A stretch of 64,000 nucleotides of DNA from Candidatus Saccharimonadota bacterium (GCA_024635455.1 JAGXIU010000003.1:354446-418445), one strand, 5' to 3'. Positions 43,151 through 62,538 are shown, counted from the first letter of the stretch. The notes: a model not told the origin generated them from the sequence alone. Numbers and translations are program-made.

Positions 43151-43187
43151 TCTATCGAAGCTGCATCGAATACGTAAAACCAAAGCA

Positions 43188-43216
43188 AATACCCACCCGC
43201 GAGGTAGGGTATTTTC
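43188..43216. terminator. bidirectional terminator hairpin between convergent genes
   Basis: AAATACCC-ACCCGCGAGGT-AGGGTATTTT. Confidence 0.5.
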
Positions 43217-43242
43217 ATTAGCGCCAGATAGTATGCGCGTGT

Positions 43243-43881: not shown

Positions 43882-44014
43882 AGAGATCTCCTTGTTGGTG
43901 GTGAATTCATTTTATTCTACACTCCTCACAGCATAAATAACTAGCAAGATATGTCTTTAGGTGTTGCACTTACTGACAACGTAGGACTGATTATTAGAGT
44001 AACGTCACTTCTTT

Positions 44015-44098
44015 CACCACGCTCACTTGACGGGGTTTGCATCCGCCTGATCGAAGCCAAGAAAAATACCCTATAAAGGTTTAGGGTGTGTTTTGTGG
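44015..44098. repeat. copy A (shorter, diverged) of the ~100-nt intergenic repeat
   Basis: 44021-44072 is identical to 45392-45443. The hairpin arm has diverged. Overlaps the stop codon of the hydrolase gene. Confidence 0.85.
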
Positions 44099-45316
44099 GC
44101 CAGGTGGGCCGTTGAGCTGGCGCGCGAGTGTTCCCATAAGCCAAGGCCAAGCAACGCCACCTTCGTCCCGGCCCAGTCGCACAATGACGGTGTCCTCGTT
44201 AGGGGCAATGTAAATGTATTGGCCTAGGTTACCTTGGGCGGCGAAGTCAGTAGGGCTACCCTGCGGACCGGTTGGGTACACCCACCAGAAGTTTTGATAA
44301 TTCTCAGACGGATCACCCGTTGTGTCGACGGATGTTGCGTCGCGTACCCATTGCTCTGGAACGACCTGCTTACCATCAACGATGCCGTCGTTCGCAAACA
44401 TTAGACCAAATCGAGCAAAATCAATGGGGCGCGCATTGACGCCACTCTCCATCTTTTCGAAGCCACTACTGACGCTATCCAAGCTCCAAGAAGCGTCGGC
44501 CTCTGCTCCGAGTGGCTTCCATAGGACATCACTCATGTAGTCGGTGACTTTCTGATCGGTCGCTCGCTCAAGCGCCATCCCGAGCAATAGCGGATTATAG
44601 TTGTTGTAGAGAAATGTCTTACCGGGTGCCTCGTCGATGACCGCGGAGAGTCCAGTTGCTCTCAAATCAGGAGAGTAGTACGTTTTCGCGGGGTCACCCC
44701 AAGGTGTCTTTTGATCTTCGTAGGCAAGGCCTGACGACATCGTAATTAGGTTCTTAAGCGTTATTGAGCTGAACTGTGGGTCGCGGTCGAGCAACTCGGG
44801 CACATAGTCAGTTATAGGATCATCAAGCGAGCCAATATGTCCCTGGTCGATCGCGATACCGATGAGAGTTGAGAGGAAAGACTTAGAGACAGAAAAAGAA
44901 GTTTGGAGCGTTTCTCGTTCAATGTTTTCTCCATACCACTCGTTCACCAGAACACCGTCTTTCACCACCAAGAACGCAGTTGTGTCGGTTCGCGTTAGGA
45001 AAGCGTCAAGATCGCCTCCAGCCACGAGTGTAGGGTCGAGTCCCCCGCCCATTGCAGGATCAATTCGTTTGAATGCTTCAGACGTCTTGTTGTTGAGTGC
45101 TACAGGTAGATCCGACGATACTGACGCCTCAATTACTCGCGAAGGGAACCGATTTATGTCACCAACGTCTGCGTCGAACCAGACGACAGAGCGAGCAAAC
45201 TGCGAACGCCCAGTAAGACTAAAAAGCAAGCCGTATGTCAGTGCTAGTATGCCAATTATGGCGACTAGTATTATCACTGCGTGGCGAACTTTAGGATTTT
45301 TTATTTTTCTCAGCAT
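44081..45316 (-). CDS. serine hydrolase, beta-lactamase (class C/PBP4*-like) family, membrane-anchored
   Basis: SVSKSF (SxxK) motif, YNNYN (YxN-like). Start moved to MLRKIKNPK because the upstream part of the track ORF reads through repeat copy B. Confidence 0.78.
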   Translation of the reverse strand: MLRKIKNPKVRHAVIILVAIIGILALTYGLLFSLTGRSQFARSVVWFDADVGDINRFPSRVIEASVSSDLPVALNNKTSEAFKRIDPAMGGGLDPTLVAGGDLDAFLTRTDTTAFLVVKDGVLVNEWYGENIERETLQTSFSVSKSFLSTLIGIAIDQGHIGSLDDPITDYVPELLDRDPQFSSITLKNLITMSSGLAYEDQKTPWGDPAKTYYSPDLRATGLSAVIDEAPGKTFLYNNYNPLLLGMALERATDQKVTDYMSDVLWKPLGAEADASWSLDSVSSGFEKMESGVNARPIDFARFGLMFANDGIVDGKQVVPEQWVRDATSVDTTGDPSENYQNFWWVYPTGPQGSPTDFAAQGNLGQYIYIAPNEDTVIVRLGRDEGGVAWPWLMGTLARQLNGPPGPQNTP

Positions 45317-45370
45317 AAGCTTATTATAGCGCGGTAGTTTAGAAATGGGGATTAATATCTGTGTTACTCG

Positions 45371-45471
45371 CACCAAACCCTCGTTCGCTAGGCTCACTTG
45401 ACGGGGTTTGCATCCGCCTGATCGAAGCCAAGAAAAATACCCTACACAAGGCAGGGTACTTTTCTTGGTGC
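45371..45471. repeat. copy B of the 101-nt intergenic repeat
   Basis: 100/101 identical to 47359-47459. Confidence 0.95.
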
Positions 45472-45585
45472 AGCAGGTACAAATAGGTTTACGCCAAATC
45501 AATGAAGAACTGATTAGATGGAGGGAGATTCTAGCTGTTCCCTACCAGCAGTACTTGTTATCTAAGTAAGGTTAGGGAGTTACAC

Positions 45586-46065
45586 TTACTCTTGTGAAAC
45601 TTGGATACTTCCTACTTCTGAAGGATTGAGATGGTTATGGTATTGCCAATTTCCAGCATTCTCAAATGTAAATACATACTCTTCACCAGGACTTATTGAT
45701 TCCTCCGAATCGAAACCAGGCAAAACTGTATGCGTAGGGTGATTATCTGATGCAATCCAAACTTCTTGACTACTTTCATTGAAAAACTTTACTGTTGAGC
45801 CTGGTGTAATTGGTCCGATTTGCTCTGGGTCAAAACGCCTATCAACATATGTCACAACCGCAGAAATAGTTTCGTCTTGTCCGTTTACTACGGCTTCATC
45901 GACTCCCTCACTCCCTGGTGCTGGAACTGCACTTACGAGTTCTTGATTTTGGTTTTCAGATGTATTTTCTACTTTTGACGCAGGCTCATCCGACCCTGTG
46001 AAGGCCCACACCCCTACTCCTGCTATCACAATTATTGTTACAATCGCAATCAATGATTTACTCAT
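45586..46065 (-). CDS. secreted cupredoxin-fold-like protein (no Cys copper ligand seen)
   Basis: Signal/TM, then TVKFFNESSQEVWIASDNHPTH...EEYVFTFENAGNWQYHNHLNPSEVGSIQV, which resembles the cupredoxin_1 pattern. Confidence 0.4.
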   Translation of the reverse strand: MSKSLIAIVTIIVIAGVGVWAFTGSDEPASKVENTSENQNQELVSAVPAPGSEGVDEAVVNGQDETISAVVTYVDRRFDPEQIGPITPGSTVKFFNESSQEVWIASDNHPTHTVLPGFDSEESISPGEEYVFTFENAGNWQYHNHLNPSEVGSIQVSQE

Positions 46066-46214
46066 GAAATCTCTCCTTTAATAGATACATTGTATCAAAA
46101 CAAAAGACGACGCCAGAACATCATCCCTTTTGATATGGTGCACTGCTGTGGATGGACTTCTAACTTCTATTGCTGGTTTAAATAGCCATTATTACTAGGT
46201 GCTACAATTAGATA

Positions 46215-46424
46215 ATGAATGAAACGAGACAAACAGCATTAGTTAAGTGTCCAAAATGTAGTCATGAAACAGAACTTGAAGTACCACAAACAAGCTGCTT
46301 GCCTGCTTACAAATGTGGAGGTTGCGGTGAGTTGATTATGATACCTAAAGACTCCGAGAACTGTTGCATAGTCTGCGAATACTCAGATGACGAATGTCCA
46401 ATACCAAACAAACATAAAAAATAG
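46215..46424 (+). CDS. GDCCVxC domain-containing small Cys-rich protein
   Basis: CPKC...C..YKCGGCG...ENCCIVCEYSDDECP matches the GDCCVxC family layout. Confidence 0.7.
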   Translation: MNETRQTALVKCPKCSHETELEVPQTSCLPAYKCGGCGELIMIPKDSENCCIVCEYSDDECPIPNKHKK

Positions 46425-46461
46425 TAACAAAAAGACGATTAGGGTATTTTCCTCTTTGGTC

Positions 46462-46506
46462 TGGTGCGAGCGAGGGGATATCGGTAAGCCTTTTCCGTTG
46501 AAACAT
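46462..46506. repeat. second, degenerate att-like copy (tRNA-Gly 3' end core plus element-proximal sequence)
   Basis: TGGTGCGAGcGAGGGGATATCGGtAAGCCTTTTCCGTTgAAACAT matches 47280-47324 at 42/45 positions. Confidence 0.85.
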
Positions 46507-46547
46507 TCAATCTTTCAGCAGAACTTATTTAGTCACAAATACAATAG

Positions 46548-46829
46548 TTAACTTCCTGCTATAGGCGAACCAAATACACCAACTGCGAGTTCCGCCCAAA
46601 AAAGTAGGAACAGCGCTACTATAAATAATCCAACCACAATCTGATTCATACTTCTTGCTCTATTTGTAATTAGACTGGCAGCGAAGCCAAGCCCTGCTAA
46701 CAACACTGACATGATAATAAAACTAGGCACATTCCAATCAAAATTGTTTGATATCATCATTCCAATGATTGGTATAAGTAAAAGTGATTCTGCGCCTACT
46801 ATAAATCGCTTAATTCTTTTATAGTCCAC
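46548..46829 (-). CDS. small membrane protein (3 TM)
   Basis: GTG start with AAGAGG RBS. Confidence 0.4.
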   Translation of the reverse strand: MDYKRIKRFIVGAESLLLIPIIGMMISNNFDWNVPSFIIMSVLLAGLGFAASLITNRARSMNQIVVGLFIVALFLLFWAELAVGVFGSPIAGS

Positions 46830-46843
46830 GGCTACCTCTTTCT

Positions 46844-47128
46844 TTAGTATTTAATATTATTGAGTGCTTGAATAGAACCATTATTAAAAGCTTTATTTTT
46901 ATCAATTAAATTAAGTAGTCTCATCGCCTGGTACAAAGCAAAATAAAAAGGAATTGCTGGTATATATAATCCAGCCAATATTGGTTTGTAAAATCCTGTT
47001 TGGTCAGAGGAAAGTCCAGCTGGAAGAGCAAAAATACAAATTACAAGCACAGTTAGGCCTATGAAGACGATTGTTGCTCGCAGAAGTACTGTTGAGCCAC
47101 GTTCAATTAATTTTATTGCTGTGTTCAT
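46844..47128 (-). CDS. DUF2975-like small membrane protein
   Basis: 2 TM followed by NLIDKNKAFNNGSIQALNNI, which resembles the DUF2975 core. Confidence 0.4.
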   Translation of the reverse strand: MNTAIKLIERGSTVLLRATIVFIGLTVLVICIFALPAGLSSDQTGFYKPILAGLYIPAIPFYFALYQAMRLLNLIDKNKAFNNGSIQALNNIKY

Positions 47129-47278
47129 ATCTAAAAGATTACACAGTATTTATTGTTTATCAATATATTTTTATTGTTAAAATTTTCACTAATAGAGTAA
47201 GTTAGAGTCGTAGTTTGGGTTAAAGCAAAAAACGCAGATTTGCTCGACGTTTCTCAGGGGTCATGTTCTGCAATATAT

Positions 47279-47297
47279 TTGGTGCGAGTGAGGGGAT
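47279..47297. repeat. attL core (displaced copy of the tRNA-Gly 3' end)
   Basis: Identical to 62235-62253. Confidence 0.9.
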
Positions 47298-47358
47298 ATC
47301 GGCAAGCCTTTTCCGTTCAAACATGCTCGATGCAAGCATCTGCGCGTGATTTCACTCC

Positions 47359-47459
47359 ACCAAACCCTCGTTCGCTAAGCTCACTTGACGGGGTTTGCAT
47401 CCGCCTGATCGAAGCCAAGAAAAATACCCTACACAAGGCAGGGTACTTTTCTTGGTGCG
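47359..47459. repeat. copy C of the 101-nt repeat, just inside attL
   Basis: 100/101 identical to copy B. Contains the TACCCT...AGGGTA hairpin plus T-run (a minus-strand terminator for 47649-48320). Confidence 0.95.
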
Positions 47460-47648
47460 CCATAAGCTACGAAAGTAAAACCTTACTTCTTAGAGATTTG
47501 CAAAAAATACCTGAGAATTAAACACACCTGCGTTCCTATATAGTTTGTCCAGTAAGTGAAACAGCTACTGACAGTATGAGTCTAGAATTACTAACCGATA
47601 ACCGAGACAATGTAGACAACTATAAGTTATGGGAGTTAGTGAAGAGAT

Positions 47649-48320
47649 TTAATCAATTAACTCCTGCAACAAGACTTTGAAATTAAGTTCTCCAATATTC
47701 TTCGGTGAAATAACTACATTTTGAGAACTATTCAAAGTCATATAAGAATAGCCAGCTAACTCGGGTACAGCTTCTAGCCAGAGATTCTTGCTCCGCATTA
47801 CGACGATTACCTTGTTTCTGCGAATTGCTTCTCTAACAATTTCAAATGAGTAGAGCTGTGAGGGTGTGTAGCTGTTGATGTGTTTATAGTTCACTGAATG
47901 ATATGGGAAGTACTCAACCATCATAATTTTATCTCGCAGTACTTCTTCTGAAATACCCGCAGTAATAAGAGGTTTAAGTTTTGCACTCCACCATTTATAG
48001 CCACCTGTTGCTTCTAGTCCACCGTTAAAGTAATAGAATGGCGAAGTGTAAGGGTTCTCTAGGTTATTACGACAGCCTTCAATAAACTCAGGCAACTTCA
48101 TATTTACATCTACATCGGAATCGGTGAAGCCAGGGTTAAGGGCTAAAAAGACTACTTTAGCTTCATTTAAACCACCTACTAGTGGTTCGGGCAGAGTATC
48201 GAGTCTTAGCCCGATAAAGTTCTTGTGGCTTTCAATAACCGCTAAATCTTCGGCGATAATATAAGGTTCTGTATCAGGCAAATTAGTCCAAGGATTAGTC
48301 AATATTAACCCGCTAGTCAT
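47649..48320 (-). CDS. hypothetical protein, possibly uracil-DNA-glycosylase-superfamily fold
   Basis: VVFLALNPGF resembles UDG motif A (G-x-NPG of the MUG/SMUG families). YFPYHS resembles motif B (HPS), about 90 aa later. Not verified. Confidence 0.35.
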   Translation of the reverse strand: MTSGLILTNPWTNLPDTEPYIIAEDLAVIESHKNFIGLRLDTLPEPLVGGLNEAKVVFLALNPGFTDSDVDVNMKLPEFIEGCRNNLENPYTSPFYYFNGGLEATGGYKWWSAKLKPLITAGISEEVLRDKIMMVEYFPYHSVNYKHINSYTPSQLYSFEIVREAIRRNKVIVVMRSKNLWLEAVPELAGYSYMTLNSSQNVVISPKNIGELNFKVLLQELID

Positions 48321-48322
48321 GG

Positions 48323-48625
48323 CTACAACCTCTCCATCAACTCTAGAAATGCGTCATCTACCCACATAAATAAGCCCTTGTCCCTAAATGTATCTACTTC
48401 GTTATGAGGAACAATTTCATCAAATACCTTGCCATTTACTACCTGTGCATTAAATCCATAAGGCGAACCTTCTTCGTCTGATATTCGCTTTAGATAAAAG
48501 TAACTCTGATAGTCAGGGTGCGTGTACTTATACTCCTTACCTCTATGTTGCGTCCAAGCGTCTTGTGACTCTTTGAAAATGAACCCTTTACTAAGTAGAG
48601 TTGTATCGTATTCTTCTCTCGTCAT
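48323..48625 (-). CDS. hypothetical protein (100 aa), co-transcribed with 47649-48320
   Basis: 2-nt gap to the downstream gene. The track start at 48631 is a TTG; the ATG at 48625 has TGaTATACT 6 nt upstream. Confidence 0.45.
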   Translation of the reverse strand: MTREEYDTTLLSKGFIFKESQDAWTQHRGKEYKYTHPDYQSYFYLKRISDEEGSPYGFNAQVVNGKVFDEIVPHNEVDTFRDKGLFMWVDDAFLELMERL

Positions 48626-48700
48626 AGCCAAAGTATATCAGAGAGTCAGTAACTTTTTATTGGGGGTGTGCTCATACGAAAATAGTCTACAATTAGCTTA

Positions 48701-48877
48701 ATGATTGGCAAAATAGACGAAAAGAAACTAGCAGAGTGGAAGAAGACATTAGCTGATAGTGGCGTAACCTATGAAACTGATTATGAGTATCGAGAAGCTA
48801 TCCACAATCTAGTTGGCTACTTTGATATTTTGATACAAATAGACTTAGCTAATAATGAAAATGACTCCAAAAACTAA
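48701..48877 (+). CDS. small acidic hypothetical protein (58 aa, below track cutoff)
   Basis: Hand translation MIGKIDEKKLAEWKKTLADSGVTYETDYEYREAIHNLVGYFDILIQIDLANNENDSKN. Convergent with the SLATT gene. Confidence 0.25.
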   Translation: MIGKIDEKKLAEWKKTLADSGVTYETDYEYREAIHNLVGYFDILIQIDLANNENDSKN

Positions 48878-49387
48878 CTATTTCTTTTTTTTCTTAATGG
48901 CTTTGTAGGTTTGACCGCCACTTTTTATATTAGATTTGGCTTTCTTATACGCCTTAACCGATGGAATTAAAGCCGTTCCGTTGATTTCTTGCTGTCTTGC
49001 CACAAGTTTAGCCAATATTTCCCTTGCTTCATCGACAGGCAGTTCCCCTAAATCAACATCTATAAATATTCTTGTATCCTGTTGTAGAGCTAAGTAAGCA
49101 TTTGCAGTAGCGTGAGCCTGATCAATTTTCTTGGAGTAATTCAAGGTTGTCATTATTCCACTTAAAAATGCAGCTAAAAGTGCCATTATTGCGACTGGCG
49201 TTTTACCTATCGTAGTTGCTAGTCCAGCCACACCTGCAATCGCTGCGATTCCTGACGAAGGTATTCCCAAGAATAAGTATCGTTTATTCCACAGTTTTGC
49301 CTGTTCAAACTGTCCTTGAGAACTGTACATTACAGCCTCGTGAACTTTGTTTGCCTCTTGGCGTATAGCGTCTTTTCTATTCTTCAT
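48878..49387 (-). CDS. SLATT-domain 2TM effector protein
   Basis: N-terminal helix, two adjacent TM helices (FLGIPSSGIAAIAGVAGLA / VAIMALLAAFLSGIMTTL), C-terminal helical region. TAATG overlap with the upstream NTase. Confidence 0.6.
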   Translation of the reverse strand: MKNRKDAIRQEANKVHEAVMYSSQGQFEQAKLWNKRYLFLGIPSSGIAAIAGVAGLATTIGKTPVAIMALLAAFLSGIMTTLNYSKKIDQAHATANAYLALQQDTRIFIDVDLGELPVDEAREILAKLVARQQEINGTALIPSVKAYKKAKSNIKSGGQTYKAIKKKKK

Positions 49388-50229
49388 TATATTTCCCTGT
49401 CAAAAACTAGCTTCCACCAACCAAGTGCGTCAGTATGCTGGTCGGCTTTCTGGCAAGCTACGGCATTGTTTACTCTAGTTAAGGCAGTGTTTAGCTTAGA
49501 CATTGCATCTAGCCGCTGTAACTCTGTAGTGCAGGGACTTACTAATCCAGAGATACCCATTGGGTCACGAATTGCTGCAAGATTGTCAGAAATCAGTCGA
49601 CTTATTACTCGCTGAATATCATATTCATAAATTATTGACTCTTCATCTTGGCAATACTTGGCAATACGCAATTCCAGGTAAAACGAAGATATCGGTATAT
49701 TTCTAAAGTATTTAAGAGCCTTTATAAGCCTTATTAACGGCTTTACCTTGTACCCTAGGTTAGAGTTAATGTTGTTTACATACGCATTGTGAGCCGATGG
49801 ACTAGCTTTTTGCCAACCGCCAAAGTCAGGTATTAGATAAACGCTAAAACCATTACTCTGCTCTTGATAATATGCAGGTGTAACTTCAACAGTTCTATTG
49901 TCTGAGAAATAGCACACTACTGCTGGTGTTCTAATTCCGATAGAACTGGAAGTAAACCTGCCTTCGAAGGAAGTTTTTACAGCTGAAAGCATAGACTGCG
50001 AATCATTGCGTTGCGAAGCAGCTGGAATACTAGCCATCAGGTCTAAATCCGTATAGAACCTTACGCCAGTTCCGTTGCCAAAAGAACCCGTTTCGTTGCA
50101 GATACTCACGTTAAATGAGTCATTAAGTCGGGCTTTGATTGAAAGTTTATGGGTAGCATACGACGCTCTCTCCGCATCGGTCGGAGTTAATCTTGCGAGA
50201 AAATCTACGAAGTGTTGGTTAATTGTCAT
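49387..50229 (-). CDS. SMODS-like nucleotidyltransferase (pol-beta fold)
   Basis: GSFGNGTGVRFYTDLDLM (GS...DxD) and downstream acidic strand VEVTPAY. Confidence 0.65.
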   Translation of the reverse strand: MTINQHFVDFLARLTPTDAERASYATHKLSIKARLNDSFNVSICNETGSFGNGTGVRFYTDLDLMASIPAASQRNDSQSMLSAVKTSFEGRFTSSSIGIRTPAVVCYFSDNRTVEVTPAYYQEQSNGFSVYLIPDFGGWQKASPSAHNAYVNNINSNLGYKVKPLIRLIKALKYFRNIPISSFYLELRIAKYCQDEESIIYEYDIQRVISRLISDNLAAIRDPMGISGLVSPCTTELQRLDAMSKLNTALTRVNNAVACQKADQHTDALGWWKLVFDREI

Positions 50230-50418
50230 AATATATCCTAGCTATATTATGCTACAGCTTCCAACAGATACAAAGCGTAAGCATTGACAAAAGCCAAATT
50301 AATGTTATTAGTGCTTATGCTTGCAATCAATAATGTACGCAGTTACAAGCTGTTTGATATTTGTCAGGTGTTAGGAGTTTATTGTGTCGTAGGGTCTAAC
50401 TAGCATACAATTACAGCT

Positions 50419-51018
50419 ATGAATGTAACTAATGCTGAGTACTTTACTTTTAATGTAGATTCGTCACTACTATTAGTTGGACAAACTGGTACAGGCAAAT
50501 CCGTATTAGAAGATAGATATATTGAACGTTTACTGAGTTCTTTTTCACCTGACGAATTAAAGTTTGTGCTTATTGATATGACAGGAGTCGATTTTTTTCA
50601 AATTAGGGATAATCATAAAGACTACATTATGGAAGATGTTAAATTTGATTCAAGCAAGGGTCTGGCAGTCTTGGAGCAAGTTGATACTCTTGCGAAAGAA
50701 CGAGTTAGTTCACAAAATATTACACCCTTGATAGTTCTATGTATTGAAGAATGCGACATGGCCGCCCTAAACCAAACTCGTTTCGACAACTCGTTAATTT
50801 CTATAAATAAAATCGCAAAATCAGCAAATATAAAAGTAATCTACTCCACATCACGTCCAGCTCCCGACGTTGTCTCAAGTCGTTTATTAAACAGTTTCGA
50901 TTTAATTTTAGCTGGCACTCTTGTAGATACTGATTATGAATATCTAGGTGTTCAAAAACCCAAAGAACATAAAAAATTTGAATTCGTTGTAACACAATTA
51001 AATAAGAGTAACGGGTAA
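50419..51018 (+). CDS. minimal FtsK/SpoIIIE-family ATPase (199 aa)
   Basis: Walker A GQTGTGKS, LKFVLIDMTGVDF, Walker B LIVLCIEECDM, IKVIYSTSRP (compare ATQRP). Confidence 0.7.
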   Translation: MNVTNAEYFTFNVDSSLLLVGQTGTGKSVLEDRYIERLLSSFSPDELKFVLIDMTGVDFFQIRDNHKDYIMEDVKFDSSKGLAVLEQVDTLAKERVSSQNITPLIVLCIEECDMAALNQTRFDNSLISINKIAKSANIKVIYSTSRPAPDVVSSRLLNSFDLILAGTLVDTDYEYLGVQKPKEHKKFEFVVTQLNKSNG

Positions 51019-51020
51019 AA

Positions 51021-51437
51021 ATGAATGTTTATCTTGATATAGATGGGGTGTTGCTCGCTAACGACCTTAACCCCGCTAATCACGTTCACAAATTTCTTCA
51101 AACTATAAATCAAAAAGCGGAAAAAGTTTATTGGCTAACTACGCACTGCCAAGGAGACTCGCTAACAGCAGTAAAACGACTTTCACTGGTATTTGAACCA
51201 AAAACTCTTGAGCTGATAAAAAACTATAAGCCTACTACTTGGGAAACCGCTAAAACACGAGCGATAGACATAAAAGAACCTTTCCTCTGGTTTGATGATA
51301 ACTTATTCCATGAAGAAAGGATTACACTCGAAAAACACGGTCTTTTAGATAACTGGATAGAGGTAAATTTAACTAAATATGAAAACCATTTACTAAAGTT
51401 TATTACGGATTTTCCTATACCTGTTCAAGGTTTATAA
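51021..51437 (+). CDS. HAD-like hydrolase
   Basis: Motif I YLDIDGVLL, WLTTH, WFDDN. Confidence 0.5.
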   Translation: MNVYLDIDGVLLANDLNPANHVHKFLQTINQKAEKVYWLTTHCQGDSLTAVKRLSLVFEPKTLELIKNYKPTTWETAKTRAIDIKEPFLWFDDNLFHEERITLEKHGLLDNWIEVNLTKYENHLLKFITDFPIPVQGL

Positions 51438-51591
51438 ACAACTTACAGTGCAATTCTCTCCAAAATCTAAAATCTTCTTGATTTAATAGAGTCCCTAAAA
51501 TTACAAGACTAACCTGTATGATAGCTCTTTGCGATATATCTATGAAACTCTTTTCATGTGTCGATGAATTTCCATTATAATGGAGTAAGTT

Positions 51592-52464
51592 ATGAGGGAA
51601 ACAAAAAACCAAGTAAAGACATTAGCGACTGCTATACCACGACCTTTCTTAAAATGGGTTGGTGGCAAAGCTAGATTATTACCAGAGATTTCAAAGTATT
51701 ACCCAACAAGTCATGGAACATTTTATGAACCTTTCGTAGGCGGGGGTGCAATGTACTTTTCCCTAAAGCCTAAATCTGCCCACATCAATGACCTAAACCT
51801 CGTTCTTATTAGTGCATATAAGCACATCAGGGATAGATTAAAGCCGCTGATTGGTTCGTTGCAAGAGCTTGAATTACGGTACTACTCATTACCTTCACTA
51901 GAGGAAAAGAAGTTATTTTTTCTAGAGCAACGAGAAACCTTCAATTCTTTACCTAACGATTCTTTCGAAAAAACTGTGCTTCTAATATTCCTAAATAAAA
52001 CTTGTTTCAACGGAATGTATAGGGAGAATTCTAAAGGTGGGTTCAATGTACCATTCGGAAAACATGAAAAACCAAAAATATGTGACGAGATTAATTTGAA
52101 GAGAGTATCCGTTTCTTTACAAAATACTACAATTACACATTCGTCGTATGAAGAAGCTGTATCTACTGCGAAAAAAAATGATTTTGTTTATTTTGACCCA
52201 CCATATCACCCCCTCAATCCAACTTCTAGTTTCACCAGTTATCAGGCAGGAGGTTTCTCTGAGCAAGACCAAGTTAAATTACGAGATGAATTCAAAAGAC
52301 TTTCTAACATCGGCTGCAAGGTTATGTTAAGCAACTCTGATTCGCCCCTAATAAATGAACTATACAAAGAATTCAATATTCGCAAAATATATGCCGCTCG
52401 CTCAATTAATTCAGTCGGCACTAAAAGGGGCAAAATCCTAGAAGTATTAATAACAAATTACTAG
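51592..52464 (+). CDS. dpnM: Dam-family N6-adenine DNA methyltransferase (GATC), DpnM-like
   Basis: FLKWVGGKARLLPEI, FEPFVGGGA, DPPY motifs. Confidence 0.9.
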   Translation: MRETKNQVKTLATAIPRPFLKWVGGKARLLPEISKYYPTSHGTFYEPFVGGGAMYFSLKPKSAHINDLNLVLISAYKHIRDRLKPLIGSLQELELRYYSLPSLEEKKLFFLEQRETFNSLPNDSFEKTVLLIFLNKTCFNGMYRENSKGGFNVPFGKHEKPKICDEINLKRVSVSLQNTTITHSSYEEAVSTAKKNDFVYFDPPYHPLNPTSSFTSYQAGGFSEQDQVKLRDEFKRLSNIGCKVMLSNSDSPLINELYKEFNIRKIYAARSINSVGTKRGKILEVLITNY

Positions 52465-52465
52465 C

Positions 52466-53254
52466 ATGGGAAATTTCAAACACTATCAGTCTGAATTAGT
52501 TACTCTTTACATAGATGATGCTATCAAACGAATGAAAAAACTTGAAAAAGAGTCGGTAGATATGATTTTTGCTGACCCACCTTATTATTTGTCTAACAAT
52601 GGTATCACTGTAAAAAGCGGAAAAATGGTTTCAGTTAACAAAGCAGAGTGGGACGTTAGTAAAGGTGTACTAGAAGATTTTAAGTTTCATAAAAAATGGA
52701 TAAAAGCAGCGCATAGGCTACTAAAACCCAACGGTACGCTCTGGATAAGTGGGACTTACCATTCTATCTACCTTTGTGGCCATGCACTTCAAGAAAACGG
52801 ATACAAAATACTTAATGATATTGCGTGGTTCAAGCCTAACGGCGCACCCAATATTAGTTGTCGATACTTTACAGCTAGTCATGAAACTTTGTTATGGTCT
52901 GCTAAAAGCCCTAATTCAAAACACACTTTCAATTATGAGTCGATGAAGTACAACAGGTGGGAAGAAGATGTGTTTAAGAAAGAAGCAAAGCAAATGCGAA
53001 GTGTCTGGTGCATTCCTACTCCTGGACCTAGTGAAAAAAAAAGTGGCAAGCACCCTACGCAAAAACCACTGGCGTTGCTTGAACGAGTTATTTTAGCTAG
53101 CACCCAAGAAGGAGATACAGTTCTTGACCCTTTCAATGGTAGTGGTACTACTGGTATAGCTGCACTCAAATTAGGAAGAAAATACGTTGGAATAGATAAT
53201 AAGACGGAATACCTCGATATAACCGTTAAGCGCATTCAAGATATAATCAAATAA
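52466..53254 (+). CDS. dpnA: second N6/N4 DNA methyltransferase (beta class), DpnA-like
   Basis: DMIFADPPYYLSN, then C-terminal HPTQKP and DPFNGSGTTG. Confidence 0.85.
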   Translation: MGNFKHYQSELVTLYIDDAIKRMKKLEKESVDMIFADPPYYLSNNGITVKSGKMVSVNKAEWDVSKGVLEDFKFHKKWIKAAHRLLKPNGTLWISGTYHSIYLCGHALQENGYKILNDIAWFKPNGAPNISCRYFTASHETLLWSAKSPNSKHTFNYESMKYNRWEEDVFKKEAKQMRSVWCIPTPGPSEKKSGKHPTQKPLALLERVILASTQEGDTVLDPFNGSGTTGIAALKLGRKYVGIDNKTEYLDITVKRIQDIIK

Positions 53255-53266
53255 AACAGGAGTAAT

Positions 53267-54181
53267 ATGAAACATCTAGAACACTACAAGAGTAACGGCC
53301 TTCAATCTTCCGATCATGTTTTTGATTATCTTCTTGAGACAATGCGTCCAGGTGTAGCTGATTGGGAGTACTTTGTGGACTGGAACAAGGTTTTCAACAA
53401 CACCAGACTAATAGAGTCGAGCCTTAACATTATGAATTATCTATTAGGTAAAGAAGATTTTGATAATGAATTTAGATACTTAGTGAAGAAGTATCCTGAA
53501 ATTATGCAGATGATTCCAGTATTGATAGTACGGAATGGTGCAAAATCCAGCGAATATCATGTAGTGACAGTTAACGGTGCTTCATTAACCGAGGAAGCTT
53601 TTAAATTCAGCAATTCACAGCCTAGTGACGAAGATATAGAAAGTGCCATTCTATTTATTAAAAACAGCGGACTGATAAAAATATTCAGACAGGACGGCGT
53701 TCACAATCTTGTTGACTATGTACTTGGTGTAGAAGCAGGATTGAGCAGTAATGGTAGAAAAAATAGAGGTGGCAAGGCTATGGAAAATGTCTGCGACGCT
53801 CTTCTCGCTGGAATGAAACTTGATTATCTAAGAGAGGCTAATTCAAAGGATATTGAACAGAAATTCGGCGTAGAACTAAAAGGAATGGAAGGACGACGCT
53901 TTGATTTCGTAACGATGGTAAACAATAAGTTGTTTGTTTTAGAAGTAAATTGCTACTCAAGCGGTGGGTCTAAGCTCGATAAGACAGCTAGCGATTTCAG
54001 GGGGCTCCAAGACGAACTTAGGGGTCAAGCAGTTTTTGTGTGGCTTACCGATGGCCATGGTTGGCTCAAAACCCGTAACCCACTACGGAAAGCCTTTGAC
54101 CATAATGACTACATACTCAATATTGAGATGATAAATAAGGGCGCCTTAGCAGAAGTTTTTGAGACAGCCTCAACTAATTAA
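53267..54181 (+). CDS. dpnB: type II restriction endonuclease, DpnII/MboI family
   Basis: Colinear with R.DpnII as I recall it: VADWEYFVDWNKV, NLVDYVLGVEAGLSSNGRKNRGGKAME, RFDFV, LEVNCYSSGGSKL, WLTDGHGW. Confidence 0.85.
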   Translation: MKHLEHYKSNGLQSSDHVFDYLLETMRPGVADWEYFVDWNKVFNNTRLIESSLNIMNYLLGKEDFDNEFRYLVKKYPEIMQMIPVLIVRNGAKSSEYHVVTVNGASLTEEAFKFSNSQPSDEDIESAILFIKNSGLIKIFRQDGVHNLVDYVLGVEAGLSSNGRKNRGGKAMENVCDALLAGMKLDYLREANSKDIEQKFGVELKGMEGRRFDFVTMVNNKLFVLEVNCYSSGGSKLDKTASDFRGLQDELRGQAVFVWLTDGHGWLKTRNPLRKAFDHNDYILNIEMINKGALAEVFETASTN

Positions 54182-54376
54182 CCAAGTTAGTAAATTAAAG
54201 TAGTCACATTTGTTATTGCCACAGCCTAAATAAGGTTTGCTTTTTGATAAATACTTGTTAGAACGGCTTAGAATCGCTCAGAAAACCTGTTTAATGCTCG
54301 TTTACTCTTTGTTTTCTTACTAGTATGTAAGGTAAAAAGTCTATTTTCTAATACCAAAATCAAAATTATGAATTAC

Positions 54377-54793
54377 TTACTTGTTATTTTCAATGGAAAG
54401 GAGTTTTTTAAATAACTGCTGTGCCTCACCTGTTTCAAATAAATCAGCCCAAGCGCCTTCATTAAATCGGGAGTTTCGTGCAACCGCTGTGAGCAATTTT
54501 AAGATAAAAATCTTATCAAGATTTTTATACTTACTACTGCTTGAATCCTTGAAGAAATCTCGTCCTTCTTGCCAGCTACCCCAATCAAAATCGACAATTA
54601 ATTTGTTGTCGTATAGAAACTTCATAAAATCATGAGCTAACGGGTCACTCCATGAATTTAGCGTAACGTTGTTTCCTTCTCTTACGCTGCGGTCTTCCCA
54701 CCATGGTCCTTCATGTTGTTCAAGTTCTTTTATTAAAGACGCCAGTTGTTCTAAAGCTTCATTGCTTAGTTCATAATTATTGTCATCGCTCAT
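54377..54793 (-). CDS. hypothetical protein; C-terminal segment resembles the domain often fused to or adjacent to bacterial macro domains (DUF6508-like, from memory)
   Basis: LLTAVARNSRFNEGAWADLFETGEAQQLFKKL. ATGA overlap with the upstream gene. Confidence 0.4.
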   Translation of the reverse strand: MSDDNNYELSNEALEQLASLIKELEQHEGPWWEDRSVREGNNVTLNSWSDPLAHDFMKFLYDNKLIVDFDWGSWQEGRDFFKDSSSSKYKNLDKIFILKLLTAVARNSRFNEGAWADLFETGEAQQLFKKLLSIENNK

Positions 54794-55392
54794 GTTGTAC
54801 TTTCCTTCTTGTATTTTATAAGGTCATAACCTAGTTGCCATAAGTATTTGTCTACTTCTTTTAATGAATGTTCTTCAAGTCCGTAGAATGTAATGAAAGA
54901 ATTAATAGCTTCAATATACTTTAAATAGTCTTTATTGTTCATGCCCTTACCATAAAAGCCATCGATTTTATTGAAGTACTTTAGCACGCCATCAACATAG
55001 GAGTCATAAATGGAAAATACTTCAGGTCTATGAAAGCTACAGTATTTAGATGCGAAGCTATAGAGACGAGATGACTTTCCGTCTGGTAGTGTAATGTTTG
55101 CGATGTCATCTACCAATGATAAGTCACCATTTTGAAGTCGATGGTCTATATTAAGTGCTTTTATGTGATGAGACATCTGTATGCACCCACCAGACATTCT
55201 TAGTTGTGTGCTGTAAAGATTATCTAGAGCACTGACTTTTATAACAATTTCGTCGATGCTTATATTTAAAGGGTAGGTAGAAGTGAAAAGCTTAATCAGT
55301 GCAATTTCGGTATAATTCGTCTTCTTATCAACATCAAACTTCGTGTTCAATTTGATGAGGTCTATTTTATTTGGGCGTTTTAACAAATCCAT
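54790..55392 (-). CDS. hypothetical protein (200 aa, predicted all-alpha)
   Basis: 2 nt after the macro gene stop. Motif SFASKYCSFHRPEVFSIYDSYV...DKYLWQLG. Family not recognised. Confidence 0.4.
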   Translation of the reverse strand: MDLLKRPNKIDLIKLNTKFDVDKKTNYTEIALIKLFTSTYPLNISIDEIVIKVSALDNLYSTQLRMSGGCIQMSHHIKALNIDHRLQNGDLSLVDDIANITLPDGKSSRLYSFASKYCSFHRPEVFSIYDSYVDGVLKYFNKIDGFYGKGMNNKDYLKYIEAINSFITFYGLEEHSLKEVDKYLWQLGYDLIKYKKESTT

Positions 55393-55394
55393 CG

Positions 55395-55910
55395 TTAACC
55401 CTTCAAAACACTGTCAATTAGAGATTTATCGTACTCGTTAAATGAGACTAATATTACTTCATCAATAGTTGAGGCTATTTCATTATCTTGAAAGTAATCC
55501 CTAATCGTCTTTATTGCCACACGAGTAGCTTCTTCTTTAGGGAACATATAAACGCCCGTTGATACAGCAGGGAAAGCGATTGATTTGCATTTATTTTCAT
55601 CGGCAAGCTGTAGTGAGCGTAGGTAACAACTCTCTAGTAAATTCTTTGCTTCATTTGGTGAGTACTGACCATATATTGGTCCAACAGTATGGATTACATA
55701 TTTTGCAGGCAAATCGTAACCTTTAGTTATTTTTGCGTCACCTGTTTCGCAGCCATTCAGAGTTCTACACTCCTCTAAAAGCTCTGGACCAGCAGCTGAG
55801 TGTATTACATCGTCAACGCCGCCACCGCCTAGTAGAGTATTGTTTGCAGCGTTTACTATTGCATCAATTTGAAGTGTGGTTATATCAGTCTGTATGCTTT
55901 TTATCGTCAT
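55395..55910 (-). CDS. macro domain protein (ADP-ribose/O-acetyl-ADP-ribose hydrolase, YmdB-like)
   Basis: [33 protein letters not shown]...[11 protein letters not shown]. Confidence 0.9.
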
Positions 55911-55946
55911 ACATACAGTTTACTTAAAAACATTGATAGTCCGCAA

Positions 55947-56087
55947 TTATCTATCATTTTTTTGAATCATGAGTTTTGCTAATCTTATTTTGAATGCCTC
56001 TATAGACTCATCCTTTCTTGGCTTGATGAGAAAAGCTCCTGTAGTCATACTAGTATAGGTTTGTACTCTTTTTTCATTGTTTTTCAT
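55947..56087 (-). CDS. possible small ORF (46 aa) heading the macro operon
   Basis: Hand translation MKNNEKRVQTYTSMTTGAFLIKPRKDESIEAFKIRLAKLMIQKNDR. Ends 37 nt before the macro ATG. Confidence 0.2.
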   Translation of the reverse strand: MKNNEKRVQTYTSMTTGAFLIKPRKDESIEAFKIRLAKLMIQKNDR

Positions 56088-56310
56088 TAATCTATAATAT
56101 CAACAAAATCACTCTACCGTTGAATATCTTAAAATCTAAAACATAGGATTCTTTTTAACTCGATATTTGTGTGCTAATTAAGTATGGTTTTAACGCATTT
56201 ACAGACGATATACCAGCTTTTAAGGTCATTAATGAGTATATGTTCATTTGAGCTATTTAACAATGTAGCTTTGTGTTTTGTAACTCAGCTATATCAAACG
56301 TTTAGTGCGG

Positions 56311-57435
56311 TTAATAAGAAATAAACTTTATGACTCTTAATCCATCTGCGGAAGTTGTACACTCCATAACTCCTATAGCCTTTTCGGCTCTCAAGAAGCC
56401 TCTACTATCTGCAATATTTACTTTTATCAAGATAGTACCATCAGACTGTACTCTCTCTATACTCGATTGGTCATAGCCAACATTAATATCTTTCACATTG
56501 AAGTAAGATTGAGCGTAGGCTACACAACTTACTTCTGCTTCGAATATTGCGTCATCTGAACTGCCCATACCTGGAATATAGTTAACTATAAGTTTTTTTG
56601 TTACTACCCCGATATTATTTTCAGCAATAATAGTAAATACATTCTCACCAGGATTTAAGTCAGTCTTATATTTAGTAGACAATATGCCTATATTTACTGC
56701 TGTACCGTTTACTTTCAAGGAGTGACCGCTCGAACTATATATATTTGATGTTTTAAATCTTATATCATAATTTTTAAGACTTGTAGAAATCGTTAAGTGT
56801 TCGTTTTCTTCCGATGAATCTTCGACTTCAAATGTCGGCAACTCTTTTGCTTCGGGCTTTGAGTAATCGCTTAAAGGTTTTTCTTGTTTTTTTATAAAAT
56901 AAATAGTCTTTTCGTCGGTACCTTTATCATTTGAGGCAATTATTTTGTAGGACTCACTCAGATTAGTAGTATCTATTTCAAAGTAGAATCTTGAGGCGTC
57001 AACTATACTTGGTGGTACATTGACGTCATTTACAGTTAGAGTAGTATTCTTTTGTTCAGAAGAAGTGCCAGTTGACACACTTAACGAATACTTATCAGAT
57101 AATAATACTTCTTTATTTAAGTCTATATACGTTTTATCGTCATTGACTACAGAGTTTGTAATAACAATTGCTGGTGCTTTTTTTGCTTTAGGTACTGAGT
57201 CTGTACTTCCAATAAACCAGAAGCCTACCCATAATAATGAAATTATGATTGCAGTCAGCTTTTTCTGCCTACTCCACTGTTTGTGAGTTAGGGCTAAAAC
57301 TATACCAACTGGTGGAAGAAATATAAGAAATAACACAGTCAAAATAGACCTTGTAGACATTGTTTGTCCATTGGCTCTATTTAAAGAACCTTTCACTGTA
57401 TTTTGATTGGGTAGTTTTCTTATTTTCATGCTCAA
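56311..57435 (-). CDS. membrane-anchored surface protein, hypothetical
   Basis: Two N-terminal TM helices, then a beta-rich Ser/Thr/Asn-rich ectodomain. Confidence 0.45.
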   Translation of the reverse strand: MSMKIRKLPNQNTVKGSLNRANGQTMSTRSILTVLFLIFLPPVGIVLALTHKQWSRQKKLTAIIISLLWVGFWFIGSTDSVPKAKKAPAIVITNSVVNDDKTYIDLNKEVLLSDKYSLSVSTGTSSEQKNTTLTVNDVNVPPSIVDASRFYFEIDTTNLSESYKIIASNDKGTDEKTIYFIKKQEKPLSDYSKPEAKELPTFEVEDSSEENEHLTISTSLKNYDIRFKTSNIYSSSGHSLKVNGTAVNIGILSTKYKTDLNPGENVFTIIAENNIGVVTKKLIVNYIPGMGSSDDAIFEAEVSCVAYAQSYFNVKDINVGYDQSSIERVQSDGTILIKVNIADSRGFLRAEKAIGVMECTTSADGLRVIKFISY

Positions 57436-57644
57436 TAAATTTTATTAGTAATTTCGATGAACAAAAAAGCTCATCACAAGCGATACCCTTTCGGATACCC
57501 ATCACCGTTTCCAGTAATGACAACAGAAAGAAGTACTCATGATGAGCTGTTTCTTTCTGTTGATTTGATGACCATGCTAACTAAAAGTTAGTTTAGGTCG
57601 TAGTGGTTGCCCACATGTGGTCTAGTATATCGTTTTTTATAGGA

Positions 57645-57932
57645 TTATTCTTGCGTTAATTCTTTACTACGAGATTCTGCATACTCCCACGCTGAGAACG
57701 ACTTATCACTTTCTGGTATGTAAGGGTCTTCTCCAAACATTGTGTAGGAGCTATATAGCTCTTCAGCAGTTATATTTGGTTCGAGTGCAGAGATTAGGAA
57801 ATCATCTATAATCATTTTGCAATGTGCAATTGCTTTACTTAAGCTATCGTATTGTCCTGAACGATAGCGTTCACTCTCGTCCATAAAATGGAAGTTATCA
57901 TCAACTAATACTGTGTATGTTTTTCTTTTCAT
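57645..57932 (-). CDS. hypothetical protein (95 aa)
   Basis: ORF only. Confidence 0.4.
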   Translation of the reverse strand: MKRKTYTVLVDDNFHFMDESERYRSGQYDSLSKAIAHCKMIIDDFLISALEPNITAEELYSSYTMFGEDPYIPESDKSFSAWEYAESRSKELTQE

Positions 57933-58153
57933 TTTGACCTTTCAGAGCCAAATAAAAAACGGCTCATGAGTTATTATTTCATAGCCGCAATGGACGCTTG
58001 ATAGCCGCTGTCCTACATCTATATTATAGCAGATTTTGTCTGTAAAAGATATGATAATTTGTGACTAAAAAAGCAATAACACAGAAGGAACAGTGATATT
58101 CAGCTGAAAGTTAATAAATTTACAACCAATCAGTTACAATTATAACCAATACT

Positions 58154-58630
58154 ATGTTTGCAAAAATAACACCTGATTTAAACATACTGCCAGAAGACCT
58201 TAGCGATTTGAATCTGATTGCACTAGCCTTTTTTACAATAGCTGCAATATTTTTACTGATTTATATTGCCATATATTTATTACCCCATGCTTTGCGTTTA
58301 CATAAAGAAAAAAGTATAGAAAAAGAGAAATCAGAGAAAGATATACGTTTCGATAAATTTAAATCAGTGCTACACCTTGGTTCAAAACAGTTAACTATTC
58401 CTGAAAGCTCACTAGAATATTATGTATGCAAACTTGTTTTTGAAAACCCTAAAACTTATCATAGCGATTTAGATATTTTAGACGAAGCAGGTGAGCCCAA
58501 TAAAAAAGATAGGGCGGTCTATTTTGCAGTGGACAGAATAAATAAAAAAGCTAATCGTGAATTAAAACTAAAGTACAACTTATTTAAGCGCAATCGTGAA
58601 AGAACACGACTGAACGATAACTATTTTTAA
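58154..58630 (+). CDS. membrane-anchored protein with C-terminal winged-helix (OmpR/CadC-like) segment
   Basis: N-terminal TM. LTIPESSLEYYVCKLVF...AVYFAVDRINKKAN...LFKRNRERTRLN resembles trans_reg_C. Confidence 0.35.
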   Translation: MFAKITPDLNILPEDLSDLNLIALAFFTIAAIFLLIYIAIYLLPHALRLHKEKSIEKEKSEKDIRFDKFKSVLHLGSKQLTIPESSLEYYVCKLVFENPKTYHSDLDILDEAGEPNKKDRAVYFAVDRINKKANRELKLKYNLFKRNRERTRLNDNYF

Positions 58631-59011
58631 TTTTCGATAATATTTTAAGACGATTATTTATATTTTTTAATCTGTTAAACACATCTAATAACATTGAAGC
58701 TCAGTCGGTAGACCTCTACTAACATTGTTTGTTGTTCAATGAAGACAAGCTTTTACGAAGCGGTATTGAATCACCCAAAAGTATCGATTCTGTAGCCTAC
58801 CGTAAGTCTAAGCGGATAAAACATTACATTAATCTAAAAGGAGAAAAAAATCACCAATAATACTTAAAACTAAATAAAACTATAACAATGTGAAGAAACT
58901 ATATTACTAGAAATAGTGTAAGTAATTCTATCTGAACGCCTTTAACTAACTGGAAAAATTATTACCAGGCTTGTTAAGTGCGTCCATAAATCAATAATAA
59001 AGGAACTAAAA

Positions 59012-59185
59012 ATGAGAATAAGTGAAGACAGTATCTTAAATCTTCAGACGATTCTGAAGAAACAGATAGGTGAAGAATATGACTCGGAAAATGTTCAAGC
59101 AGCAGGACGAGCAATTCTAAAATTATGCGGCATAAAACTATATCAACAATTTGAGAAAGACAACGAATATGAAATACAAGACTAA
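59012..59185 (+). CDS. small hypothetical protein (57 aa, below track cutoff)
   Basis: Hand translation MRISEDSILNLQTILKKQIGEEYDSENVQAAGRAILKLCGIKLYQQFEKDNEYEIQD. AAAGGA RBS-like sequence upstream. Confidence 0.25.
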   Translation: MRISEDSILNLQTILKKQIGEEYDSENVQAAGRAILKLCGIKLYQQFEKDNEYEIQD

Positions 59186-59316
59186 AGTAACATCATTTAA
59201 AAAGTTTAAAAGGCTAATTGTACAACCACTAGCACGATATGAATACAGGCGAAAATATATAGCAGTAAGAAGAAGCATGCAGCTTAGAGAGATTAAGCTG
59301 GCTAACGAGGTACATT

Positions 59317-60573: not shown

Positions 60574-60642
60574 ATAGGAACCGAAGTGTTGACTATCAAC
60601 CGTAACATTGGTCCTATATAATTTAAAAGAAGGAATAAGAAA

Positions 60643-62247: not shown

Positions 62248-62311
62248 GGGGATTCAAACCCCTGGCCTCTTCCTTGGCAAGGAAGCGCTCTATCAGCTGA
62301 GCTACACTCGC
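62236..62311 (-). tRNA. tRNA-Gly (GCC), CCA encoded
   Basis: Hand-folded. Acceptor GCGAGTG/CACTCGC, anticodon loop TTGCCAA, T-arm AGGGG-TTTGAAT-CCCCT. Confidence 0.9.
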
Positions 62312-62530: not shown

Positions 62531-62538
62531 AACAAAAT

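Follow-up and report, generated by a model that had tools for sequence, protein, structure and literature searches.

The question raised by a 64,000-nucleotide stretch of a Candidatus Saccharimonadota bacterium genome (GCA_024635455.1, JAGXIU010000003.1:354446-418445; hereafter the window, with positions counted from its first base) is why a repeat of about 100 nucleotides occurs there in three copies, A, B and C, downstream of a tRNA-Gly gene. A preliminary description made from the sequence alone had offered two explanations, a small element flanked by inverted recombinase half-sites or the scars of successive integrations. Our analysis favors the second of these: with a probability of roughly 0.7, DNA segments have accreted one after another at tRNA-Gly and the copies mark where these segments meet, where they would also terminate transcription. 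The repeat unit had been viewed as an element in its own right, and it is instead the tRNA-proximal two-thirds of a tRNA-end module of ~180 nt.

The repeat unit and the tRNA-Gly attachment site

A repeat search of the window returned one direct-repeat family, at 44000-44100 (74%), 45371-45471 (the reference) and 47358-47458 (99%). This bears out the three copies originally described, including the identity of B and C at 100 of 101 bases. The boundaries of B stand as given, those of C shift by one base (47358-47458, not 47359-47459), and copy A extends over ~44008-44101 on the minus strand (nhmmer E 1.8e-10). A block shared perfectly by all three copies is present as reported (44021-44073 in A), with a length by blastn-short of 53 nt rather than 52; a 51-mer from its center recurs exactly at 44022, 45393 and 47380, where shuffled sequences give an expectation of 0. 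All copies share a single orientation in a single array, and blastn-short found no fourth copy in the 64-kb window. Copy A is indeed short by about 20 nt, which are deleted from hairpin 2, and its hairpin sequence differs yet still forms. It carries neither a tRNA-end remnant nor an att core, and appears to be the oldest copy or a chimeric one. As had been noticed, every copy lies 3' of a minus-strand gene, B 115 nt past the gene for a 159-aa protein and C 190 nt past that for a 223-aa protein, while the hairpin of A is fused to the 3' end of a hydrolase gene whose stop codon (44081-44083) falls inside it. The neighboring genes are not the same from copy to copy.

The concern that the copies might be an assembly duplication is dispelled by two observations. 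In independent Logan assemblies of two runs, contigs stop within units B and C and the flanks on the far side are unique, as would be the case for any true repeat exceeding the assembler k-mer. In addition, a ~90%-identical copy of the unit was seen in a sister species, in five of its assemblies that are independent of one another; this species was reached through a 90%-identical leucyl-tRNA synthetase and shares ~79% identity in housekeeping DNA. Since independent assemblies break at the repeats and other genomes carry the module, the repeats are not an artefact.

The connection to tRNA-Gly is found at the ends of the copies. Integration is directed at the tRNA-Gly(GCC) gene at 62236-62311 (minus strand). 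The att core, which consists of the last 19 nt of this tRNA (plus A), is found at 62235 (0 mismatches), 47279 (0 mismatches) and 46461 (2 mismatches; 17/19), and the inserted DNA is delimited by these directly repeated copies of the tRNA 3' end. The core copies at 47279 and 46461 are both followed by a shared 27-nt arm (93%), and partial cores, GCACCAA and CGCACCAA, stand at the ends of units B and C. At their left ends, copy B shows ACTCGCACCAA at 45366-45376 and copy C CACTCCACCAA at 47353-47363, while the right ends read TTGGTGC at 45465 (B) and TTGGTGCG at 47452 (C). The right end, TTGGTGC(G), is a true remnant of the tRNA-Gly 3' end and marks the point at which the module formerly adjoined a tRNA or att core. 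The left-end match (TTGGTGCGAGT, minus strand) lies within a box, GTTYGGYGGAGYGA, that is shared by modules at tRNA-Phe and tRNA-Val without matching their tRNAs. The proposal of inverted recombinase half-sites is therefore not supported, and the distance of 90 nt between the ends also exceeds what a single serine-recombinase site would span. The unit does hold an inverted piece of the tRNA, and this is the T-arm, not the tRNA end; it had been overlooked earlier, as had the Phe and Val modules.

A site-specific recombinase is located at the tRNA-proximal end of the array, an arrangement kept by its homologues. It is a large serine recombinase of 534 aa (60643-62247, plus strand) with Resolvase, Recombinase and Zn_ribbon_recom domains. 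Its open reading frame (ORF) overlaps tRNA-Gly by 12 nt, the last codons TGG TGC GAG TGA being the complement of the tRNA 3' end. The DNA between this tRNA and copy C is an island body (47481-62235, no strand assigned) with a GC content of ~0.36 versus 0.44 elsewhere in the window, and the drop from ~0.44 to ~0.36 is seen between 46 and 62 kb.

The sister species provides the corresponding empty site. There the order, in window orientation, is VKOR; TTGGTGCGAGTGAGGGGAT with arm and unit; a single cargo gene, for a DNA-alkylation repair protein; the counterpart of a segment that we call flank0; and tRNA-Gly, tRNA-Phe and tRNA-Cys. Flank0 (47196-47278 in the window, minus strand) lies directly 3' of tRNA-Gly in the sister, at 90% identity, which identifies the 15 kb from 47280 to 62235 as DNA inserted at the 3' end of tRNA-Gly. 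Over 181 nt, core, arm and unit in the sister match window 47279-47458 at 85% identity (90% for the unit alone), and this block is thus conserved between both species. The presence of units varies between genomes, as seen in the sister species and in locus L039 of another genome. Together with the att cores and the empty site, this variation upholds the suggestion that the copies are scars of successive integrations bracketing segments.

A structured module at tRNA 3' ends

In its basic form the module begins at the CCA end of a tRNA gene and, read in tRNA sense, consists of seven items. The first is the last 7-8 nt of the tRNA, which in the unit is (C)GCACCAA, the tRNA-Gly end plus A. It is followed by hairpin 1 (CCAAGAAAAGTACCCT...AGGGTATTTTTCTTGG in the Gly unit), a long stem that includes the CCA and an A-tract and leads into a U-tract. 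The third item is an inverted copy of the cognate tRNA's T-arm (GGATGCAAACCCC in the unit), which closes a second hairpin, and the fourth a loop with GTGAGC...TAGCGAACGA. The conserved box GTTYGGYGGAGYGA and a conserved imperfect palindrome of 63-77 nt (CACGCAGAAGCTTGCTTCGAG...GGAGCGTAGCGAT) come next, and the module ends with the last 12-19 nt of the tRNA again, starting in the T-loop. The 100-nt unit corresponds to items 1-5; past it, the module takes in the palindromic segment and then, at 47279-47297, the 19-nt att core. This layout is the signature of a site-specific DNA insertion into a tRNA 3' end.

The inverted T-arm piece (AGGCGGATGCAAACCCC for Gly, GACTCGAACTGG for Phe and CTCGAACCCCCGA for Val) occupies the same position in each module and, Phe2_rel excepted, gives its best score with the cognate tRNA; at tRNA-Phe it also tracks the T-stem differences between species. 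The 5' strand of the T-stem may in addition recur in direct orientation ahead of the palindrome, over 14 nt in the sister Val module and 5-7 nt elsewhere, and such a "split T-arm" is convincing only in that sister module. The T-loop of the tRNA-Gly(GCC) in the window is itself unusual, reading TTTGAAT (T-arm at 62250-62264), so that position 56 is U where C is normal; the sister shares this loop (L006 768-843), and tRNA-Gly genes of other Saccharibacteria (L014, L016) have TTAGAGT. The possibility that the palindrome and second core form a pseudo-tRNA was considered and rejected: ARAGORN returned none at its default, 90% or 80% thresholds and only spurious calls at 70%, none of them over the palindromic segment and second core, and Rfam gave no tRNA there at E<=10.

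Two solo modules occur in the window beside the Gly array. One follows tRNA-Phe (62455-62530) at 62524-62688 on the plus strand (nhmmer E 5e-35; 82.9 bits) and ends with a second tRNA-Phe 3' end, GCCTGGGAGGAGCCACCA. The other follows tRNA-Val (63684-63760) at 63508-63689 on the minus strand (64.4 bits; profile E 1.7e-10 before inclusion) and ends with a truncated second tRNA-Val end, TCCCTCAGCGC. The sister species has modules at tRNA-Gly, at tRNA-Phe (two, in tandem) and at tRNA-Val. A tRNA-Phe module in L016 was found by a profile that did not contain it (E 4e-12), the module profile matched fragments in L019 and L027, and a profile of the unit alone matched a Phe module (E 1.3e-4). The Gly and Phe modules of the window and the sister are homologous along their whole length. 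Across Gly, Phe and Val the non-tRNA parts are homologous and the tRNA-derived parts cognate, and the box GTTYGGYGGAGYGA occurs in the modules at Phe and Val too, without a match to the tRNA ends there. When 357 kb were searched with a covariance model built on the distal segment, only known modules were matched.

This family membership bears on the idea that the unit is a transposon resembling a miniature inverted-repeat transposable element, with GCACCAA/TTGGTGC as terminal inverted repeats, which we regard as very improbable. A 7-nt terminal inverted repeat, the near-identity of B and C and a strong fold would suit such an element, but the inverted repeat is only 7 nt long, no target-site duplication is found at the flanks, and the copies have one orientation in one array with none dispersed elsewhere in the window. 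Furthermore, homology extends past both supposed ends, into palindrome and core and into the junction sequence X described below, and family members are always joined to a tRNA end and carry cognate tRNA sequence.

A possible but doubtful alternative is that the ~180-nt module is a miniature non-autonomous integrative element that enters the 3' ends of tRNA-Gly, -Phe and -Val genes with a recombinase acting in trans. Such an element would bring a replacement tRNA end and a terminator, and its copies at tRNA-Gly would be independent insertions interleaved with recombinase-borne cargo. The solo modules speak for it, with nothing between tRNA and module, as do the three tRNA targets with homologous non-tRNA and cognate tRNA-derived parts, and a palindromic segment that resembles paired recombinase half-sites. 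So does the situation at tRNA-Phe, where modules stand in tandem and are cleanly present or absent by genome: the sister has an extra module of ~190 nt bounded by 18-nt repeats. (The tandem sister modules, L006 160-545 / L026 9310-9654, each end in a tRNA-Phe 3' end, and the window has only the distal one.) However, solo modules could equally be leftovers of island-body deletion between 7-8-nt GCACCAA repeats, and neither a circular form nor a dedicated enzyme was identified. An exact 22-mer of the unit, searched in 185,579 species representatives, JGI metagenomes and IMG/VR, gave only chance matches, in an Amphiplicatus (alphaproteobacterial) gene. Any mobility would therefore be limited to a narrow lineage. 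Further scans of viral contigs gave nothing or a chance coding match, and a blastn comparison with phages and plasmids gave no match. We would thus put forward only tentatively that the module is a previously undescribed, target-adapted mini-element of Saccharibacteria, whose T-arm copy possibly folds into a recombination site and whose insertion remakes the landing site for serine-recombinase defence islands.

A third species has, at L027 1-1515, a module fragment and a hairpin-1-like terminator followed by a gene for a 436-aa secreted-looking protein. This gene is inserted between the tRNA-Phe side and tRNA-Cys, and tRNA-Phe is therefore also an accretion site.

The secondary structure of the module suggests what else it may do. 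Both stems pointed out earlier, TACCCT/AGGGTA and CAAACCC/GGGTTTG, are present in the folded unit, which reaches -47.4 kcal/mol on the minus strand (z -4.0) and -43.1 kcal/mol on the plus strand (z -3.7). Over seven modules, hairpins 1 and 3 are 91.9% paired with double changes at 19 of 30 pairs; none of 500 shuffles reached the observed pairing values and slid controls were 35-48% paired, figures that are biased toward structure, since this very alignment had served to predict it. Hairpin 1 is a 17-pair helix (91.6% paired, 9 pairs double-changed) whose tRNA-sense strand has 11 G.T versus 1 A.C, and this asymmetry indicates that it acts as RNA in the tRNA sense, which is also that of the cargo genes. 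No such strand asymmetry is seen in hairpin 3 (3 versus 2), which may be a palindromic DNA site for a protein dimer. The GC hairpin with its U-tract, the covariation and the one-sided G.T changes are in keeping with the terminator role proposed at the outset: as modeled, hairpin 1 fits an intrinsic terminator, and in place it would terminate the minus-strand cargo genes. A terminator scan found copy A to be terminator-like on both strands. Elsewhere, the terminator between VKOR and the DUF4389 gene (43178-43230) has a weak likeness to hairpin 1 (nhmmer E 0.003-0.01), contains TACCCTA, and may be another decayed module stump.

The perfect 53-nt block in three copies and the significant structure could also mean that the unit is a small regulatory or cis-regulatory RNA conserved for more than termination. 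We consider this unlikely. A search for a known RNA family found no Rfam match to the unit, overlaps at E<=10 being chance miRNA-hairpin matches only, and the gathering-level Rfam scan of the window returned only tRNAs and LOOT. Promoter signal in or beside the unit is at chance level (12 consensus sites versus 10.8 expected), the conserved parts lie downstream of the terminator in the G.U-bearing sense, hairpin 3 has no strand asymmetry, and the neighboring genes differ for each copy.

Probable successive insertions at tRNA-Gly

Three modules or module remnants mark the joints of the array together with copy A. Module C is complete (47279-47480, minus strand; nhmmer E 6e-46; 84.7 bits; 85% identical to the sister over 181 nt), with core copy 2 at 47279-47297, palindrome at 47298-47357, unit at 47358-47458 and junction sequence X at 47459-~47480; its unit ends, in tRNA sense, in CGCACCAA. 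An arm-only remnant (46440-46508, minus strand) consists of core copy 3 (46461-46479) and 27 nt of the palindrome right arm, followed in tRNA sense by a 20-nt stump of the unit start, CCAAAGAGGAAAATACCCTA. Module B (45330-45495, minus strand; nhmmer E 7e-23), which contains the unit at 45371-45471, reads in tRNA sense as ~20 nt of junction sequence X, GCACCAA, unit, truncated palindrome GGTGCGAGTAACACAGAT and AATCCCC, the last being a T-loop/T-stem remnant.

In tRNA sense, from right to left, the array accordingly runs from tRNA-Gly through the recombinase island body, ending in GCTTATGG joined to CGCACCAA, to unit C, palindrome and core 2. It continues with flank0, the DUF2975 gene and a gene for a 93-aa protein up to the palindrome right arm, core 3 and the 20-nt unit-start stump; then with a zinc-ribbon gene and the cupredoxin gene, ending in TACCTGCT joined to GCACCAA, up to unit B, the truncated palindrome and AATCCCC. 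The hydrolase, unit A, DUF4389 and VKOR close the array. Two types of joint recur, one of palindrome with a full core starting in the T-loop and one of X with the last 7-8 nt of the tRNA.

The order can be accounted for by successive insertions beside tRNA-Gly, which would have brought in a 15-kb defence island, a DUF2975 segment, a cupredoxin and zinc-ribbon segment and a hydrolase segment. Each insertion would push the earlier modules leftward, away from the tRNA, leaving three unit copies and one arm-only remnant at the segment joints. The large serine recombinase would make these joints, yielding junctions of X with the GCACCAA unit, and gene conversion or recent duplication would hold B, C and the 53-nt block of A identical.

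The truncated second cores bear on where crossover might occur. They stop 6-8 nt short of the tRNA end (Val TCCCTCAGCGC, L016 CTGGGAGGA, sister Phe2 TCCGAGAGGAG), and this shortfall complements the 7-8-nt first cores. L028 and L029 have near-identical recombinase ends whose agreement extends to TGGCTCC, the final 7 nt of a tRNA, with divergence from there on. From these sequence comparisons we infer that crossover by the serine recombinase probably falls in the final ~7 nt of the tRNA; a candidate attP, CGTAGCTTATGGCG followed by CACCAATCGATACG, has a dyad symmetry of 9/14 as counted from its sequence.

Several points weigh against this account of stacked insertions. The sharp-edged 53/53 block of A and the 100/101 identity of B and C are not explained by serial independent insertions alone, and homogenisation must be assumed. 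The role of the recombinase as the enzyme and the crossover positions are both things that we infer. No module was found in the examined parts (<=10 kb flanks) of other recombinase islands, and the count of unit copies covers the 64-kb window of a 418-kb contig. The origin of module C is moreover open to two readings. If it was borne by the island, a single event with crossover in the T-loop suffices, which is the most parsimonious reading against the sister species and would imply a circle GCCGAT-ATCCCCTCACTCGCACCAA-TCGATACG and tRNA-Gly joined to TATATTGCAG. If it was already resident, two events are required with crossover ~7 nt from the tRNA end, which fits L028/L029 and the dyad symmetry better and would imply a circle GCTTATGG-CGCACCAA-TCGATACG and tRNA-Gly joined to GAAAAGTACCC.

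The recombinase belongs to a group with the same habit. Every homologue of 75-86% identity, in five other genome contexts (Saccharibacteria/Patescibacteria), adjoins tRNA-Gly(GCC), and one of 65% adjoins tRNA-Arg. Homologues of 41% in IMG/VR contigs run into the 3' ends of tRNAs, in one case tRNA-Trp; these viral contigs gave no match in a single-protein scan and did so in a profile scan. A near-terminal Trp codon, TGG, the complement of CCA, is invariant across 21 recombinase homologues, and in some (L016, L023) the ORF reaches 66 nt into the tRNA. A literature search on Saccharibacteria serine recombinases at tRNAs gave nothing relevant.

The island of the window carries SMODS, DpnII-type restriction-modification, a Macro-domain protein, an FtsK-like protein and LOOT RNA, with the recombinase gene last, and homologous recombinase islands likewise bear defence cargo. 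The LOOT RNA (RF03000; 57482-57599, minus strand; 79.7 bits versus a gathering threshold of 46.4) lies just downstream of a 374-aa minus-strand ORF. Two other islands, L018 31-6646 (77%, tRNA-Gly) and L023 1-6208 (65%, tRNA-Arg), have a common cargo block of an HSP70/MreB-like protein of 842-846 aa, an AAA ATPase, a peptidase A24 and a ~620-aa protein. A backbone just upstream of the recombinase is common to all recombinase islands and may be a replication or maintenance module; in the window (58154-60573) and in L014, L016, L020, L023 and L025 it comprises 2-3 very small ORFs and a PF27228 (MTBMA_p00010_2nd) protein of 411-423 aa.

The older cargo can be followed into L039, whose tRNA-Gly-linked array contains the same cargo. 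Between units A and B of the window lies the gene for a serine hydrolase of the beta-lactamase family (44081-45319, minus strand), and beyond unit B the cupredoxin-like gene for 159 aa (45586-46065, minus strand). In L039 the hydrolase homologue (85%) sits directly beside the zinc-ribbon region, the cupredoxin gene and unit B being absent, and has a unit at neither end. After it comes a decayed tRNA-Gly end, CTAGAGTCTCTTCACTCACACCA, that matches the tRNA-Gly of L014/L020 at 20 of 23 positions. The hydrolase has close Saccharibacteria-type relatives (66-86%) and then actinobacterial ones at ~50% (Geodermatophilus, Blastococcus, Microcella), which together with its GC content of 0.52 versus 0.44 for the genome suggests acquisition from Actinobacteria.

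That L039 has the hydrolase without units means that genes do not travel with their own repeat, and this counts against an integron-like cassette array in which the unit would be an attC-type site moving with its gene. The preliminary description had seen the genes as bracketed in cassette fashion, and the repeat 3' of a co-oriented gene each time, the covarying stems and the foreign GC of the hydrolase are what one would expect of such an array. We nonetheless think it a most unlikely explanation. No tyrosine integron integrase was found in the ten ORFs scanned (those at the repeats and the tRNA-Gly end, most island-body ORFs lying outside the scan), the only recombinase met being the serine recombinase. 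The ends do not fit RYYYAAC/GTTRRRY, no attC motif being present; the unit is part of a three-hairpin module rather than a single bulged hairpin; and the array holds multi-gene segments and a 15-kb island.

Comparison with known systems

Stacked joints of this kind show how a reduced Saccharibacteria-type genome builds a variable region, by insertions at tRNA 3' ends with reusable terminator-bearing joints. In practice, such joints allow islands and their defence cargo to be delimited in these genomes, and they account for the assembly breaks at the repeats. Large serine recombinases that target tRNAs, a family with defined candidate att sites, are of interest for genome engineering. The modules, if mobile, would form a class of site-specific elements of unusually small size that adapt in sequence to the tRNA they target.

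By analogy, the closest known systems appear to be tandem accretion at tRNA genes and the composite staphylococcal cassette chromosome (SCC) islands. In the arrays of integrative and conjugative elements (ICE) and cis-mobilizable elements (CIME) of Streptococcus thermophilus (ICESt1/ICESt3), integrative elements and their integrase-less derivatives accrete in tandem at one att site, and stacked genomic islands at tRNA genes are a further example of accretion. As in the ICE/CIME arrays, the att core here is directly repeated between segments, the recombinase is present only in the tRNA-proximal segment, the older segments are decayed, and a relative has an empty site. Unlike those arrays, which use a tyrosine integrase, the array here has a large serine recombinase, its joint is a structured module of ~180 nt instead of a short core, and its host has a Saccharibacteria-type reduced genome. 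Tyrosine integrases are also the subject of the scheme that Williams reportedly set out in 2002 in Nucleic Acids Res, in which integration within tRNA genes falls at the anticodon loop, the T-loop or the asymmetric 3' end. The 19-nt repeat from T-loop to CCA end and the second breakpoints ~7 nt from the 3' end resemble these sublocations, with the difference that a serine recombinase family is involved here, at tRNA-Gly, -Arg and -Trp ends.

Composite SCCmec/SCC islands arise at the 3' end of rlmH (orfX) through the Ccr enzymes, which are large serine recombinases, and contain several direct repeats and ccr-less pseudo-SCC elements. Like them, the array described here has a serine recombinase at the 3' end of a conserved gene, tandem elements, repeated att sequences and elements without a recombinase. 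Unlike SCC, the target is a tRNA gene and the recombinase ORF overlaps its CCA end, whereas the SCC repeats are ~15-bp cores with neither a hairpin module nor an inverted copy of the target.

Hairpin 1 resembles rho-independent bidirectional terminators, being GC-cored with an A-tract and a U-tract, lying between convergent or tandem genes and having one-sided G.U changes. Unlike ordinary terminators, its stem is built from the tRNA's own CCA end and is one of three conserved module parts. A resemblance to integron attC sites and Vibrio cholerae repeats is likewise apparent in near-identical ~100-nt repeats 3' of co-oriented genes and in the covarying structure, but, unlike attC arrays, the units have no IntI and no R''/R' motifs, do not form a single hairpin, do not travel with genes and are linked to a tRNA. 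Relative to all of these known systems, the differences are the tRNA target of the serine recombinase and the structured, target-adapted joint of ~180 nt.

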